Sequence record: ON528719
From: Shigella phage ESh6
Direction: 5' to 3' (one strand)
Length of the DNA: 39,381 nucleotides
Shown here: piece after piece, positions 1-39,381 of the stretch
How the letters are laid out: each line of letters starts with the position of its first letter
Position numbering within the stretch: position 1 is the stretch's first letter
Made by a program: the position numbers and the translations under genes
Notes under the pieces: model-generated
What the model was told of the DNA's origin: nothing
The model's database searches: none
What the model saw: the letters and a program-made list of their open reading frames with translations, nothing else

Positions 1-1047
1 GCCGGAGAAGTTACTAAAGCTGCTGCTGAGGTTTCCAAGGCTGCTGCACATGTGACTACAGCTAATGGACACGCTGACCGGGCCTACACTGAGGCAAACC
101 GCTCACGCGACGAAGCCGACCGCGCGAAACGTGAGGCAGACAAGCTGGGAAATTTCAATGGATTGGCTGGTGCACTTGATAAGGTAGATGGAACCAATGT
201 GCGCTGGAAAGGAGATATTCACACTAACGGGCGCCTTTACCTTACCTCGAATGGTTTCGACTGTGGTCAGTATCAACAGTTCTTTGGTAACGTTCCTAAC
301 CGTTATTCCGTAATGGAATGGGGTGACAAAGATGGGTGGCATCTCTATTCTGAGCGACAAACTGAGGGTGGTACTCCTACGTTGAACCTTAGAGGCCACA
401 TGACAGCAAATGGTAATGTGCGTGCTGCTGGTAACTCCTACGCAAATAACCTATTTGAGATTGACCGAGAGCAAAATTGGCCCGGTCGTGGCGCATTTGC
501 TAACCAGTATGCGGACAGGGCTGCTCCATTTACCAAGACTGGTCGCTTTCAGGCACCAAACGGTTACAGTGAGTATTACCCAATCGTTAAGGCGTTCGTT
601 GAAACACAAGGTCACGGGTATGGTACTGTTGCTACCTTTGGTATGCTGACCTCTGGCGGCGGTAGGTTTGCTAACGGGTGTGTCCATGTTATTGGGGACA
701 ATGGTACTAATGGTCTCTGGCAGTTCGACCCGAACACTGGTGGTTTCCTATCGCGTGGCGACGTACATGTTGGTGATGGTGGTATCGTCTACCAGAACGG
801 TGACATCTATGGCACTGTTTGGGGAGGCCGTCCACTGTCATCATGGCTTCGTGACCAGACCGTAAACCGCATTGCTATGAGTGACGTGAACCATGCACGG
901 CTATGGAACGCTTACGGTGTCAACGATGGCGGTGGTAAGGTAATCACAGGAATCCTCAACGGTAATGCGGACGCATTGATTGATGAGTGCCAATGGCGAG
1001 TAATGCAATACGTCCGTAATGATGGGCAACGTTTCAATATTTACTGA
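1..1047 (+). CDS. 17: Tail fibre protein gp17, 3' portion (5' portion is at the window end; permuted genome)
   Basis: Frame 1 is open from nt 1 to the stop at 1047 (ORF track 52..1047 is the same frame). ...ADRAKREADKLGNFNGLAGALDKVDGTNVRWKG...GFDCGQYQQFF matches the T7 gp17 mid-region from memory; distal ~230 aa diverge. Confidence 0.85.
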   Translation, partial: AGEVTKAAAEVSKAAAHVTTANGHADRAYTEANRSRDEADRAKREADKLGNFNGLAGALDKVDGTNVRWKGDIHTNGRLYLTSNGFDCGQYQQFFGNVPNRYSVMEWGDKDGWHLYSERQTEGGTPTLNLRGHMTANGNVRAAGNSYANNLFEIDREQNWPGRGAFANQYADRAAPFTKTGRFQAPNGYSEYYPIVKAFVETQGHGYGTVATFGMLTSGGGRFANGCVHVIGDNGTNGLWQFDPNTGGFLSRGDVHVGDGGIVYQNGDIYGTVWGGRPLSSWLRDQTVNRIAMSDVNHARLWNAYGVNDGGGKVITGILNGNADALIDECQWRVMQYVRNDGQRFNIY

Positions 1048-1059
1048 TAGGAGGACGAT

Positions 1060-1587
1060 ATGGGAACTTTACGTCACTATAAGAATTTCGTAAATTACAC
1101 TCCAGAACGCACCAAAGAGAATGCGGACCTTCTAGACCACGGAGTCGGTTTCTCAAAGGACGAGAATGGAAATGACTGGTATGAGCTTCGCAAGACATTC
1201 CGCGAGGACACATGGAAACTTGTCTATGCCAAAGACGGTTCGGTAATTCAGTGTGAACAGGATGTTCAGGAGTTAGCCGTTCAGGGTTCTGCTGGTGTTG
1301 TCGAACTTGAGGAAATACCTGCTGAATACTCTCGTTATAACATGATGCAGTGGTGGTGGGACGGTGAGAAGCTCACTTGGTATCCAAGATACTTTGAGAA
1401 CCAGAAGGCCCGTCTAATCTCTATGGCATCCAAGAAGATTGAGCAATATGCTGACTTCATTGCACTTGGGGAGGAGGGATTGGAAGGTCTCCTAAACGCG
1501 TGGCGAGCCTATCGCCTTGCTGTATATAAAGTGGACCTAAGTGTTCTACCTTTTTACGATTGGCCTGAGAAGCCTGAGGACTTATAA
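1060..1587 (+). CDS. Tail fibre assembly (Tfa-like) chaperone candidate; no counterpart in canonical T7
   Basis: 175-aa ORF 12 nt after the gene 17 stop, with GGAGG RBS. C-terminus ...LLNAWRAYRLAVYKVD...DWPEKP resembles the conserved C-terminal motif of lambda/P2-type Tfa proteins (recalled). Confidence 0.5.
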   Translation: MGTLRHYKNFVNYTPERTKENADLLDHGVGFSKDENGNDWYELRKTFREDTWKLVYAKDGSVIQCEQDVQELAVQGSAGVVELEEIPAEYSRYNMMQWWWDGEKLTWYPRYFENQKARLISMASKKIEQYADFIALGEEGLEGLLNAWRAYRLAVYKVDLSVLPFYDWPEKPEDL

Positions 1588-1642
1588 CAACAACACAAGG
1601 AAAGACGTGTAGTCCACGGATGGACTCATTTGGGAGGATATA

Positions 1643-1846
1643 ATGCTGTCTTTAGATTTTAACAACGAGGTAGTGAAGGCTGCTCCGATTGTAGGGACTG
1701 GTGTAGCAGATGGTGCTGCCAGACTCTTTTGGGGACTCTCATTAAACGAGTGGTTCTATATTGCTGCTATCGCCTACACAGTGGTTCAGATTGGTGCCAA
1801 GGTAGTCGATAAGATGATTGACTGGAAGAAAGCTAATAAGGAGTGA
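1643..1846 (+). CDS. 17.5: Holin (T7 gp17.5 homolog)
   Basis: 67-aa ORF with GGAGG RBS; near-identical to T7 gp17.5 from memory (MLSLDFNNE...KVVDKMIDWKKANKE); hydrophobic core. Confidence 0.88.
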   Translation: MLSLDFNNEVVKAAPIVGTGVADGAARLFWGLSLNEWFYIAAIAYTVVQIGAKVVDKMIDWKKANKE

Positions 1847-2664: not shown

Positions 2665-4425
2665 GTGTCTACTCAATCCAATCGTAATGCGCTCGTTGTG
2701 GCGCAACTGAAAGGTGACTTCGTGGCGTTCCTGTTCGTCTTATGGAAGGCGTTAAACCTTCCTGTACCTACTAAGTGCCAGATAGATATGGCTAAGGTAC
2801 TGGCGAACGGGGACAACAAGAAGTTCATCCTACAGGCTTTCCGTGGTATCGGTAAGTCGTTCATCACTTGTGCGTTCGTTGTGTGGTCCTTATGGCGGGA
2901 CCCTCAGTTGAAGATACTTATCGTATCAGCTTCTAAAGAACGTGCAGACGCTAACTCCATATTCATCAAGAACATCATTGACCTGCTACCGTTTCTCAGT
3001 GAGTTGAAGCCGAGACCCGGACAGCGTGACTCTGTGATTAGCTTTGATGTTGGTCCTGCTAGTCCTGACCACTCTCCTAGTGTGAAATCAGTAGGTATCA
3101 CTGGTCAGTTAACTGGTAGTCGTGCTGATATTATCATCGCGGATGACGTTGAGATTCCGTCTAACAGTGCGACTATGGGTGCCCGTGAGAAACTATGGAC
3201 TCTAGTTCAGGAGTTCGCTGCGCTTCTTAAACCTCTGCCTACATCTCGTGTTATCTACCTTGGTACTCCTCAGACTGAGATGACTCTGTATAAGGAGCTT
3301 GAGGATAACCGTGGGTATACGACTATTATCTGGCCTGCTCTGTACCCAAGGACTCGTGAGGAGAACCTCTACTACTCTCAACGTCTGGCACCAATGCTCC
3401 GTGCGGAGTACGAGGAGAATCCTGAGGCACTGGCTGGGACTCCTACAGACCCTGTTCGATTCGACCGAGACGACCTACGTGAGCGTGAGTTGGAATACGG
3501 TAAGGCTGGCTTTACGTTACAGTTCATGCTTAACCCGAACCTGAGTGATGCCGAGAAGTACCCTCTGAGGCTCCGTGACGCTATCATAGCGGCCTTAGAC
3601 TTAGAGAAGGCACCAATGCATTACCAATGGCTTCCGAACCGTCAGAACATCATTGAGGACCTTCCTAACGTTGGCCTTAAGGGTGATGACCTGTATACAT
3701 ACCACGACTGCTCCAACAACTCTGGTCAGTACCAACAGAAGATTCTGGTCATTGACCCTAGTGGTCGCGGTAAGGATGAAACAGGTTACGCTGTACTGTA
3801 CACCCTCAACGGTTACATCTACCTAATGGAAGCTGGAGGTTTCCGTGATGGTTACTCCGATAAGACCCTTGAGCTACTCGCTAAGAAGGCCAAGCAATGG
3901 GGAGTCCAGACGGTTGTCTACGAGAGTAACTTCGGTGACGGTATGTTTGGTAAGGTGTTCAGTCCTATCCTTCTTAAACACCACAACTGCGCTATGGAAG
4001 AGATTCGTGCTCGTGGTATGAAGGAGATGCGTATTTGTGATACCCTTGAGCCAGTCATGCAGACTCACCGCCTTGTCATTCGAGATGAGGTCATTCGGGC
4101 AGACTACCAGTCCGCTCGTGACGTAGACGGTAAGCATGACGTTAAGTACTCACTGTTCTACCAGATGACCCGTATCACCCGTGAGAAAGGTGCTCTGGCT
4201 CATGATGACCGATTGGATGCTCTTGCGCTAGGCGTTGAGTATCTCCGTGAGTCCATGAAATTGGATTCCGTTAAGGTAGAGGGTGAGGTACTTTCAGACT
4301 TCCTTGAGGAACACATGATGCGACCTACAGTGTCTGCTGCCCACATCATTGAGATGTCTGTAGGAGGAGTTGATGTGTACTCTGAGGACGATGAGGGATA
4401 CGGTACGTCTTTCATTGAGTGGTGA
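2665..4425 (+). CDS. 19: Terminase large subunit / DNA maturation protein B (gp19)
   Basis: 586-aa ORF, same length as T7 gp19 and near-identical from memory; GTG start at 2665 after 'aaggagg'; Walker A-like GIGKS. Confidence 0.95.
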
Positions 4426-4957: not shown

Positions 4958-4980
4958 TAATTCGACTCACTATAGGGAGA
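4958..4980 (+). promoter_or_regulatory. T7 RNAP promoter phiOR (right-origin promoter)
   Basis: 'taattcgactcactatagggaga' matches the 23-bp T7 consensus except T at -13; lies between gene 19 and 19.5. Confidence 0.8.
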
Positions 4981-37500: not shown

Positions 37501-38533
37501 CACACAGGAACTGGCTGCTCGCTCTCCATGGACTAAGATGCTGAACGGGACAACTAACTACCTTCTGGATGCTGCGCGTCAAGGGATGCTTGGAGATGTT
37601 ATTAGTGCCACCCTAACAGGTAAGACTACCCGCTGGGAGAAAGAAGGATTCCTTCGTGGTGCCTCAGTAACTCCTGAGCAGATGGCTGGCATCAAGTCTC
37701 TCATCAAGGAACATATGGTACGTGGTGAGGACGGGAAGTTTACCGTCAAGGACAAGCAAGCGTTCTCTATGGACCCTCGCGCTATGGACTTATGGCGACT
37801 TGCTGACAAGGTAGCTGATGAGGCAATGTTGCGTCCGCATAAGGTGTCCTTACAGGATTCCCATGCGTTCGGAGCATTGGGTAAGATGGTTATGCAGTTT
37901 AAGTCTTTCACTATCAAGTCCCTTAACTCTAAGTTCGTTAGAACCTTCTACGATGGTTATAAGAACAACCGAGCGATTGACGCTGCGCTGAGCATCATCA
38001 CCTCTATGGGTCTCGCTGGTGGTTTCTACGCTATGTCTGTACACGTCAAAGCGTATGGGATGCCTAAGGAGAAACGTAAGGAGTACTTGGAGCGCGCACT
38101 GGACCCAACCATGATTGCCCACGCTGCGTTATCTCGTAGTTCTCACTTGGGTGCTCCTTTTGCTATTGCTGACCTAGTTGGCGGTGTTTTAGGGTTCGAG
38201 TCCTCCAAGATGGTTCGCTCCACGATTCTACCTAAGGACACAGTGAAGGAGCGCGACCCTAATAAGCCTTATACCTCGTGGGAGGTAATGGGTAATATGG
38301 GTTCCAACATTCTTGAACAGATGCCATCGGCTGGATTTGTGGCTAACGTTGGGGCTTCCCTGCTTAATACTGCTGGCGTTGTGAATGCTCCAAACAAAGC
38401 TACTGAGCAGGACTTCATGACTGGTCTCATGAACTCCACAAAAGAGTTAGTACCGAACGATCCATTGACGCAACAGCTTGTGTTGAAGATTTATGAGGCG
38501 AATGGTGTTAACTTGAGGGAGCGTCGGAAATAA
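34577..38533 (+). CDS. 16: Internal virion (core) protein D with N-terminal lytic transglycosylase domain, gp16
   Basis: 1318-aa ORF, same length as T7 gp16; N-terminal SLT-like motif ...VAWTESRFVPTAKSKTGPLGVMQFTKATAKALG.... Confidence 0.95.
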   Translation: MDKYDKNVPSDYDGLFQKAADANGVSYDLLRKVAWTESRFVPTAKSKTGPLGVMQFTKATAKALGLRVTDGPDDDRLNPELAINAAAKHLAELVSKFDGDELKAALAYNQGEGRLGNPQLEAYSKGDFASISEEGRNYLRNLLDVAKSPMAGQLETFGGITPKGKGIPAEVGLAGIGHSQKVTQELPESTSFDVKGIEQEAPAKPFAKDFWETHGETLDEYNSRSTFFGFKNAAEAELSNSVAGMAFRAGRLDNGFDVFKDTITPTRWNSHIWTPEELEKIRTDVKNPAYINVVTGGSPENLDDLIKLANENFENDSLAAEAGLGAKLSAGIIGAGVDPLSYAPMVGVTGKGFKLINKALVVGAESAALNVASEGLRTSVAGGDSDYAGAALGGFVFGAGMSAISDAIAAGLKRSKPEAEFDNEFIGPMMRMEARETARNANSTDLSRMNTENMKFAGEHNGVPYEDLPTEKGAVVLHDGSVLSASNPINPKTLKEFSEVDPEKAARGIKLAGFTEIGLKTLGSDDADIRRVAIDLVRSPTGMQSGASGKFGATASDIHERLHGTDQRTYNDLYKAMSDAMKDPEFSTGGAKMSREETRYTIYRRAVLAIERPELQKVLTPSERIVMDIIKRHFDTKRELMENPAIFGNTKAVSIFPESRHKGTYVPHVYDRHAKALMIQRYGAEGLQEGIARSWMNSYVSRPEVKARVDDMLKEVHGVKEVTPEMVEKYAMDKAYGISHSDQFTNSSIIEENIEGLVGIENNSFLEARNLFDSDLSITMPDGQQFSVNDLRDFDMFRIMPAYDRRINGDIAIMGSTGKTTKELKDEILALKAKAEGDGKKTGEVHALMDTVKILTGRARRNNDTVWETSMRAINDLGFFAKNAYMGAQNITEIAGMFATGNVRALGHGIPILRDTLYKSKPVSAKELKELHASLFGKEVDQLIRPKRADIVQRLREATDTGPAVANIVGTLKYSTQELAARSPWTKMLNGTTNYLLDAARQGMLGDVISATLTGKTTRWEKEGFLRGASVTPEQMAGIKSLIKEHMVRGEDGKFTVKDKQAFSMDPRAMDLWRLADKVADEAMLRPHKVSLQDSHAFGALGKMVMQFKSFTIKSLNSKFVRTFYDGYKNNRAIDAALSIITSMGLAGGFYAMSVHVKAYGMPKEKRKEYLERALDPTMIAHAALSRSSHLGAPFAIADLVGGVLGFESSKMVRSTILPKDTVKERDPNKPYTSWEVMGNMGSNILEQMPSAGFVANVGASLLNTAGVVNAPNKATEQDFMTGLMNSTKELVPNDPLTQQLVLKIYEANGVNLRERRK

Positions 38534-38553
38534 TACGACTCACTATAGGGAGA
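38531..38553 (+). promoter_or_regulatory. T7 RNAP class III promoter phi17
   Basis: 'taatacgactcactatagggaga': perfect consensus; overlaps the gene 16 stop. Confidence 0.9.
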
Positions 38554-38604: not shown

Positions 38605-39381
38605 ATGGCTAACGTAATTAAAACCGTTTTGACTTACCAGTTAGATGGCTCCAATCGTGATTTTAATATCCCGTTTGAGTATCTAGCCCGTAAGTTCGTA
38701 GTGGTAACTCTTATTGGGGTAGACCGTAAGGTCCTTACTATCAATACAGACTACCGTTTTGCTACGCGTACTACCATCTCACTGACTAAGGCTTGGGGTC
38801 CGGCAGATGGCTACACTACCATCGAGTTACGTCGAGTAACCTCCACGACAGACCGATTGGTTGACTTTACGGACGGCTCAATCCTCCGTGCGCATGACCT
38901 TAACGTTGCTCAGATTCAAACGATGCACGTAGCGGAAGAGGCCCGTGACCTAACTGCCGATACTATCGGTGTTAATAACGATGGTCATTTGGATGCTCGT
39001 GGTCGTAAGATTGTTAACTTGGCGTATGCCACAAGTGACTATGATGCCGTTCCTTTAAAGCAGGTTAAAGAGCGTGAATACTCTGCATGGAATGCTGTAA
39101 CAAAATCTAACGAACACGCTGACAGGTCCAATAATGAAGCAAACCGTTCTCGTGATGAGGCCAACCGTGCTCAACGTGAAGCTGACCGTTCGACCCAACA
39201 GGCAGGTGTCTCTACGGCACAGGCAGTTGAGTCCAAAACGCAAGCTGACCGTTCCAACTCTGAGGCCAACCGTGCTAAAGGTTATGCTGATAGTATGACC
39301 ACAAGTGTCGCTGAGGCCAAGAAGCAAGCTGACCGTTCCAACTCTGAGGCAAATCGTTCCCGTGATGAGGCCAACCGTGCT
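38605..39381 (+). CDS. 17: Tail fibre protein gp17, 5' portion (continues past the window end into 1..1047)
   Basis: ATG 38605 after 'aaggagg'; MANVIKTVLTYQLDGSNRDFNIPFEYLARKFVVVTLIGVDRKVLTIN... near-identical to the T7 gp17 N-terminal domain, then heptad-rich repeats. No stop before the window end. Confidence 0.92.
   Translation, partial: MANVIKTVLTYQLDGSNRDFNIPFEYLARKFVVVTLIGVDRKVLTINTDYRFATRTTISLTKAWGPADGYTTIELRRVTSTTDRLVDFTDGSILRAHDLNVAQIQTMHVAEEARDLTADTIGVNNDGHLDARGRKIVNLAYATSDYDAVPLKQVKEREYSAWNAVTKSNEHADRSNNEANRSRDEANRAQREADRSTQQAGVSTAQAVESKTQADRSNSEANRAKGYADSMTTSVAEAKKQADRSNSEANRSRDEANRA

Follow-up and report, generated by a model that had tools for sequence, protein, structure and literature searches.

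The tail fibre of Shigella phage ESh6 is very probably a recombinant mosaic that carries a Mu/P2-type distal module and a tail-fibre assembly gene

The tips of the tail fibres determine the range of bacteria open to attack by a phage. We analysed gene 17, the gene for tail fibre protein gp17, together with the gene that follows it in Shigella phage ESh6 (sequence record ON528719), using the whole 39,381-nucleotide (nt) stretch of this record, one strand, 5' to 3' (hereafter, the window). The fibre is very probably a recombinant mosaic, in which the T7-type end was replaced from residue 373 onward by a module of the Mu S/P2 gpH kind, bringing with it a tail-fibre assembly gene (tfa); the mechanism would be analogous to that of Mu. 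An initial annotation, made from the letters alone, had noticed that the distal fibre diverges strongly from T7, but it overlooked the tail-fibre assembly gene of 175 amino acids (aa) at 1060-1587, which is part of the exchanged block.

The window holds a complete T7-like genome in circularly permuted form, opened within gene 17, and the gene occupies 38605-39381 plus 1-1047 in frame, with 259 codons up to the last base and the stop codon at 1045-1047. The resulting gp17 has 607 aa, versus 553 aa in T7. Where the window ends are joined, gp17 is colinear with the fibres of Cedecea phage Yanou and Escherichia coli phage EmilieLinder (Bas103), and we therefore regard the join as the way in which the assembly was opened and not as a break. 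As in T7-like phages, gene 17 lies 3' of gene 16 and the phi17 promoter and 5' of holin gene 17.5 and gene 18, with one extra gene (tfa) between genes 17 and 17.5. The fibre gene, tfa, and the 3' boundary of the exchanged block are laid out as follows.

38605-39024, plus strand: codons 1-140, N-terminal tail-attachment domain of T7 type (Pfam PF03906, Phage_T7_tail)
39025-39381, plus strand: codons 141-259, first part of the coiled-coil rod, Yanou/Bas103 type, with heptad-phased repeats ADRSNSEANRSRDEANRA
1-120, plus strand: codons 260-299, rod end, Yanou/Bas103 type, in the open reading frame (ORF) continuing across the window ends
121-339, plus strand: codons 300-372, T7/T3-like segment ending ...SVMEWGDKDGW, the last block common with T7
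340-765, plus strand: codons 373-514, distal shaft and most of the large beta-rich domain, ESh2/Kvp1/SPLA4 type
766-858, plus strand: codons 515-545, last strands of the beta-rich domain and conserved linker GDIYGTVWGGRPLSSWLRDQ (WGGxxLxxWLR) with a short helix, 48% identical to T7
859-1047, plus strand: codons 546-607 and stop codon, small C-terminal beta tip domain of Mu S type, assigned by similarity to Mu S
1060-1587, plus strand: tfa, tail-fibre assembly (chaperone) gene, 175 aa, full-length Mu gpU homologue
1594-1627, plus strand: conserved intergenic block CACAAGGAAAGACGTGTAGTCCACGGATGGACTC, 34 nt (alignment A2), where T7 similarity resumes

We aligned gp17 with the fibres of T7, T3, and eight further T7-like phages (alignment A1) and tallied the identities per segment. 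Against T7, identity was 98% over aa 1-140, 24% over aa 141-299, 82% over aa 300-372, 12% over aa 373-514, 48% over aa 515-545, and 13% over aa 546-607, and the profile against T3 was the same. Identity is not uniform along the fibre and breaks sharply between segments, dropping from 82% to 12% within a few codons after W372, at nt 340. Much of what the initial annotation had described was borne out: the N-terminal domain is near-identical to T7, the stretch ending ...SVMEWGDKDGW (nt 121-339) is T7-like, and the divergent region, which had been placed at 350-1047, in fact begins at nt 340 and ends with the stop codon at 1047. Scattered similarity in the last ~230 aa was likewise found, with one island, HVGDGGIVYQNGDIYGTVWGGRPLSSWLRD versus HVGQAVVATDGNIQGTKWGGKWLDAYLRD in T7, and the T7 motif that the initial annotation had given for this comparison was correct; the island (GTVWGGRPLSSWLRD versus GTKWGGKWLDAYLRD in T7) gave a BLASTP E value of 1e-5 and a probability of 93% over 40 columns in hhalign. 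The claim that the central region as a whole tracks T7 did not hold, since the coiled-coil rod (aa 141-299) has only 24% identity to T7 and exceeds the T7/T3 rod by 54 aa.

The proximal segments differ in their affinities. The N-terminal domain matched PF03906 with an E value of 5.3e-67 and 224.8 bits (cut-off, 25.2), placing the protein among the T7-like gp17 fibres of the Studiervirinae in the Autographiviridae, and it was 98% identical to both T7 and T3 and 99% identical to Bas103. The rod was 84-85% identical to Yanou/Bas103 versus 24% to T7, and aa 300-372 were 82% identical to T7 and T3 and 30% identical to Yanou/Bas103. Beyond this point, aa 373-514 were 94% identical to Shigella phage ESh2, 86% to Kvp1, 82% to SPLA4, 53-54% to LL2 and Leclercia 10164-302, and 11-12% to Yanou/Bas103. 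No sequence homology was found to T7 residues 371-553 apart from the linker: identity was 12-13% outside it, and a profile comparison aligned 40 columns only. The linker at aa 515-545 is the sole stretch with sequence similarity to the C-terminal region of T7 gp17.

The distal end of the fibre resembles that of Mu. The last ~55 aa of gp17 matched the Mu tail fibre S/S' (8JU3; phmmer, E 1e-4), indicating homology to Mu S, and the last 18 aa (QWRVMQYVRNDGQRFNIY) hardly vary across all T7-like fibres that come with a Tfa. The tip domain has 62 aa here versus ~89 aa in T7 gp17, whose C-terminal region consists of pyramid and tip domains. Most distinctive are the loops at aa 545-559 and 575-589, with identities of at most 67-73% to anything in the phage collection. 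An AlphaFold model of aa 372-607 (67 sequences) was confident, with a mean predicted local distance difference test (pLDDT) score of 84.7 and values above 90 from model residue ~45 (aa ~417). In it, a beta-rich domain whose strands reach aa 530 is followed by a short helix (aa 538-545, at the WLRDQT motif) and then by a small beta domain at the C terminus. The best match of the model among solved structures was Mu S and the second best was the C-terminal region of T7 gp17; the scores were modest, partly because a single chain of a trimer was modelled. The model suggests that T7-type and Mu-type ends share a general layout. Besides, Pfam yielded PF03906 alone in the 607 aa, and no S74 or intramolecular chaperone domain was found at the gp17 C terminus; a fibre with an intramolecular chaperone (Peptidase S74, e.g., K1F and Bas102) was rejected on this ground.

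The second part of the exchanged block is tfa, which starts 12 nt past the gene 17 stop codon. Its product belongs to the family of Mu U, P2 G, and lambda Tfa (PF02413, Caudo_TAP; 41.1 bits against a cut-off of 22.1) and aligned end to end with Mu U (PDB 5yvq_B; E 2.3e-11, residues 5-173 against 2-175). T7 and T3 have no tfa, the holin gene 17.5 lying directly 3' of gene 17. Tfa was 95-98% identical in seven Teseptimavirus/Teetrevirus phages whose isolation hosts were E. coli, Shigella, Cedecea, and Leclercia; the value was 83% for the Berlinvirus phages Kvp1 and SPLA4 and at most 35% for the Tfa proteins of Mu, P1, P2, and other myoviruses. In the phage collection, a Tfa at least 80% identical occurred in 14 records, versus 274 records matching the gene 17 5' region, and the fibre-plus-Tfa cassette is uncommon.

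Both ends of the exchanged block lie in conserved sequence. The coding stretch ...SVMEWGDKDGW is the left homology arm of the exchanged module and the 34-nt intergenic block is the right one. The latter is identical in T7, where it follows the gene 17 stop codon, and its core (1605-1623) includes columns that are invariant in all 11 aligned sequences, whether gene 17 or tfa precedes it. Since T7 similarity resumes just past the tfa stop codon, the exchanged unit extends from nt 340 to ~1590 and comprises the distal fibre and tfa. We also considered the intergenic hairpin at 1611-1625 (GTCCA-CGGA-TGGAC) as an RNA element and rejected it, because its fold energy was no better than that of shuffles (z = -1.2). 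As the hairpin was not significant and a terminator-like site was not found, the block is treated only as a conserved homology arm.

In ESh2 (ON528716, UNVERIFIED; 3329-3934), a one-base insertion at the tfa stop (GACTTATTAAC versus GACTTATAAC) abolishes the stop codon, and the tfa ORF thus has 201 aa and extends into the intergenic block. Either the extra base is a sequencing error or the protein truly has an extended C terminus.

The conservation of Tfa bears on what the protein may do. The 175-aa protein might itself be the adhesin, that is, a tip-bound receptor-binding protein that sets the host range like gp38 of T2 or S16, rather than mainly a chaperone. Some fibre accessory proteins do act as adhesins (PMC7289586), and Mu Tfa attaches to the fibre's C-terminal region and stays on the tip, according to a statement in PMC7289586 citing North et al. 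(2019). However, the identity of Tfa stays at 95-98% across phages isolated on E. coli, Shigella, Cedecea, and Leclercia while the distal domain of the fibre spans 11-94%, which is the opposite of what a specificity determinant would display and argues against such a role, and the protein aligns over its full length with the Mu chaperone. We therefore consider an adhesin function improbable. The near-constancy of Tfa and of the last 18 aa of the fibre next to a highly variable aa 373-514 fits, instead, a constant docking pair combined with a variable receptor-binding part. This pattern is consistent, by analogy, with Mu, where the chaperone stays bound to the fibre.

We then turn to the relatives of the distal region. 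An exhaustive HMMER search of 1.84 billion cluster representatives (E <= 0.001) returned 156 relatives, many of which cover only the part at aa 373-514. They form two sub-modules, one at query residues ~45-180, usually internal in long fibres, and the other at ~125-236, usually C-terminal. Among 10 of the 156 relatives analysed with Pfam, five had a P2 gpH-type N terminus (PF12571) and two had a T7 N terminus. In the phage collection, matches beyond T7-like phages were to Yersinia myoviruses, the Fels-2 "P2 gpH-like protein" (tblastn, E 5e-9), and the P1-like SJ46, with ~27-38% identity. A shallow word-indexed protein search gave two matches, a Salmonella fragment and one metagenomic protein. 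Judging from these matches, the relatives of the distal region beyond T7-like phages are mainly P2 gpH-type and Mu S-type myovirus fibres. In one distant relative from the representative search (P0006, 643 aa), a single predicted protein combines a fibre beta-domain (230-371) with a Caudo_TAP domain (512-635); it is either a natural fibre-chaperone fusion or the result of a missed stop codon.

Several points weigh against a replacement by a foreign module, or at least against a recent one. No close donor was found outside T7-like phages, the best relatives there being at most 50% identical. A donor scan of species-representative bacterial genomes gave only a Paenibacillus match with 31% identity, and scans of IMG/VR gave nothing and then only Kvp1 itself, with no donor prophage identified. 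As no nearer donor was found, either the module left its myovirus-type source long ago or the donor is unsampled. Furthermore, the C-terminal region of T7 gp17 was the second-best structural match of the model, so that the two types of tip may be very distantly homologous, in which case the "replacement" would have been one between related folds.

Nevertheless, the evidence supports module exchange, not drift. The initial annotation had left open tip divergence or exchange as the source of the difference from T7; of the two, exchange is favoured by the sharp in-frame breaks, the extra tfa, the P2/Mu-type relatives, and the occurrence of the cassette on several backbones, whereas divergence in place is not. 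The latter would require that host-driven diversifying selection altered an original T7-type receptor-binding domain beyond recognition with no exchange, which is scarcely credible given the fall in identity within a few codons, a block holding a whole gene that T7 and T3 do not have, sequence relatives among P2/Mu-type fibres and not among T7-type tips, one and the same cassette on Teseptimavirus, Teetrevirus, and Berlinvirus backbones, and a tip domain shorter than that of T7 (62 versus ~89 aa).

We mapped the mosaic by sliding-window DNA identity (100-nt windows) combined with fine-scale protein identity. Nucleotides 1-100 were 86-87% identical to Yanou/Bas103 and 24-35% identical to T7/T3. 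For nt 101-300, T7, T3, and Leclercia 10164-302 were closest (66-85%; T7/T3 alone, 79-85%), and for nt 301-800 ESh2 was closest (80-91%), followed by Kvp1 and SPLA4. No relative exceeded 76% DNA identity over nt 800-976. From ~976 through tfa, identity to Yanou, Bas103, and Leclercia 10164-302 was mostly 90-97%, and nt 1001-1600 were 90-100% identical to Yanou/Bas103. The best overall DNA match for the region was ESh2 (87.6%). The DNA and protein scans reveal at least four junctions in the fibre region, and they indicate that the fibre carries pieces from at least three donor lineages. On these comparisons, the fibre is a new mosaic: the rod is of Bas103/Yanou type, the distal domain is of ESh2/Kvp1 type, and the tip loops are partly unique. 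It matches no single known fibre throughout. The fibre-plus-tfa cassette itself is present in three genera of Studiervirinae, on Teseptimavirus, Teetrevirus, and Berlinvirus backbones.

Such a patchwork might also arise as an assembly artefact, if reads from several co-occurring T7-like phages had been merged into one fibre gene and the contig cut inside gene 17. Indeed, the window both begins and ends within gene 17, the pieces of the gene have different phages as closest relatives, and the tip part at nt 800-976 lacks a close relative. When a terminally redundant genome is assembled as a circle, however, a start within a gene is normal, and the ORF is intact over all junctions and over the window ends, where it is colinear with Yanou/Bas103. 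Unlike in a chimera of known genomes, each segment is diverged from its nearest relative (74-97% in 100-nt windows of the fibre-tfa block), and the backbone too is only ~92-93% identical to its nearest relatives. Besides, the junctions sit in conserved stretches, where natural recombination is expected. An assembly chimera is thus unlikely, and we give it very little weight.

Transcription and translation signals around the cassette, with the first gene beyond it, are as follows.

38531-38553, plus strand: phi17-type class III phage promoter with 0 mismatches to the T7 consensus (TAATACGACTCACTATAGGGAGA)
1049-1054, plus strand: Shine-Dalgarno sequence AGGAGG for tfa, read from the sequence, 5 nt 5' of the ATG
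1643-1846, plus strand: gene 17.5, T7-type holin, the first backbone gene past the module (Pfam PF10746, E 3.7e-34)

T7 annotates phi17 at the equivalent relative position. In a promoter scan allowing up to three mismatches to the T7 consensus, the next match after 38531 was only at 4958 and none lay between gene 17 and tfa; terminator-like sites were likewise not found there. The AGGAGG gives tfa a strong ribosome-binding site and is conserved in Yanou, Leclercia 10164-302, LL2, and Bas103.

We propose that the recombinant fibre works as follows. The retained T7-type N-terminal domain plugs the fibre into the tail, and the incoming module consists of three parts, namely the beta-rich domain, the conserved linker with its short helix, and the small beta tip at the C terminus. 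The tfa gene would have come in with the module, taking its place between gene 17 and the holin gene, and the two genes would be co-transcribed from the phi17 promoter. By analogy with Mu, Tfa would bind the nearly invariant extreme C terminus of gp17 and start trimerisation there, and it may stay bound; folding of this fibre would then depend on its chaperone. The variable beta-rich domain and the tip loops would recognise a host surface structure, probably a lipopolysaccharide (LPS)-type sugar structure. Given the conserved flanks on both sides (...SVMEWGDKDGW on the left and the 34-nt block on the right), homologous recombination could move the module among co-infecting T7-like phages. A changed receptor specificity, which the initial annotation had proposed, is plausible, and the relatives came from isolations on Shigella, Kluyvera, Salmonella, Leclercia, Cedecea, and E. 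coli. A bolder and rather doubtful extension is that the last 18 aa and Tfa form a portable "folding cassette" that permits free shuffling of beta-domains and loops in three genera, that the unique loops specify a receptor that none of the known T7-like phages uses as yet, and that Tfa stays as a structural part of the tip.

Tfa-carrying T7-like phages comprise Kluyvera phage Kvp1 (genes 17/17.2), Shigella phage ESh2, Salmonella phage SPLA4, E. coli phages LL2, PGX1, and EmilieLinder (Bas103), Leclercia phage 10164-302, Cedecea phage Yanou, and Serratia phage Seera. ESh6 shares with them the order gene 17, tfa, holin gene, the T7-type N-terminal domain, the near-invariant last 18 aa, and a Tfa of 83-98% identity. 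Unlike any one of them, it combines a Bas103/Yanou-like rod, a T7/T3/Leclercia-like aa 300-372, and an ESh2/Kvp1-like aa 373-514. The fibre-plus-Tfa arrangement is annotated in Kvp1, LL2, Leclercia 10164-302, Yanou, SPLA4, and Bas103, the product of Kvp1 gene 17.2 being named "putative tail fiber assembly protein." In the Kvp1 paper of 2008, genes 17-17.2 were flagged as a dissimilar region (PMC2579914). The BASEL paper of 2025 reported a "Mu-like Tfa" 3' of the fibre gene of Teseptimavirus Bas103 with a predicted hexamer (3:3 fibre-Tfa) as in Mu, and Bas103 depends on the O16 O-antigen (PMC11990801); the distal domain of Bas103 differs from that of ESh6.

Compared with Mu S/U (PDB 5YVQ and 8JU3), the fibre is alike in its C-terminal ~55 aa, in its full-length Tfa (both 175 aa), and in the position of the chaperone gene immediately 3' of the fibre gene. 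It is unlike Mu in that the Tfa identity is ~29%, that attachment is by a T7 podovirus N-terminal domain and not to a myovirus baseplate, and that this genome has no invertible G segment, alternative S'/U' pair, or invertase. Indeed, no second copy of the tip or tfa was found on either strand, and the only inverted repeat in 1-2300 was a 14-nt pair with 86% identity inside tfa; a Mu/P1-like invertible host-range segment (G or C segment) was rejected because no inverted duplicate was found. With P2 gpH-type fibres, ESh6 shares the distal domain, most distant relatives of aa ~417-550 being internal domains of PF12571 fibres with Phage_fiber_2 repeats, and P2 gpG is a Tfa homologue; identity to these fibres is at most 50%, and the N-terminal attachment domain and virion type are others. 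In comparison with T7/T3 gp17 (PDB 4A0T), the fibre has a rod extended by 54 aa, distal domains with 12-13% identity, and a shorter tip domain, and tfa is present. The T7 fibre is not known to need a separate phage chaperone.

Modular exchange of the gp17 C terminus behind a conserved N terminus is textbook knowledge for T7-like phages (e.g., PMC2579914 and PMC7693777). Since this exchange and Tfa-carrying T7-like phages are both already documented, our analysis contributes a further example and a more detailed map rather than a new principle. A Tfa-bearing Mu/P2-type tip is a real, already documented route to host change for T7-like phages, and ESh6 illustrates that one gene can layer at least three recombination events. 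For the engineering of T7-type phages, this would imply that such a tip cannot be transplanted alone; tfa, and probably also the matching last ~18 residues, would have to accompany it, and the conserved flanks (...MEWGDKDGW and the 34-nt block) are natural cut-and-paste points.

The rod and the backbone yielded some further observations. The rod at 39115-39381, continuing into 1-120, contains a 57-nt repeat family of five copies with spacings of 21 and 84 nt, and the super-repeat of 105 nt (35 aa) is heptad-phased and encodes ADRSNSEANRSRDEANRA. The heptad-phased repeats and the 54 extra aa relative to T7 suggest that fibre length can change by unequal crossing-over. The backbone is that of a Teseptimavirus, with ~92-93% identity to phages HZ2R8 and CICC 80001 at 94-95% coverage (phage collection; window positions 2200-27000), and the phage may therefore be a new Teseptimavirus species. 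The true genome ends (terminal repeats) lie elsewhere than the window ends, probably shortly 3' of the terminase gene ending at 4425. The T7 RNA polymerase promoter consensus gave 11 matches, four of them perfect and all on the plus strand, at 4958, 5787, 11145, 11220, 11706, 15871, 22499, 25832, 26871, 31239, and 38531; thus, the phage very likely uses an RNA polymerase of T7 specificity.

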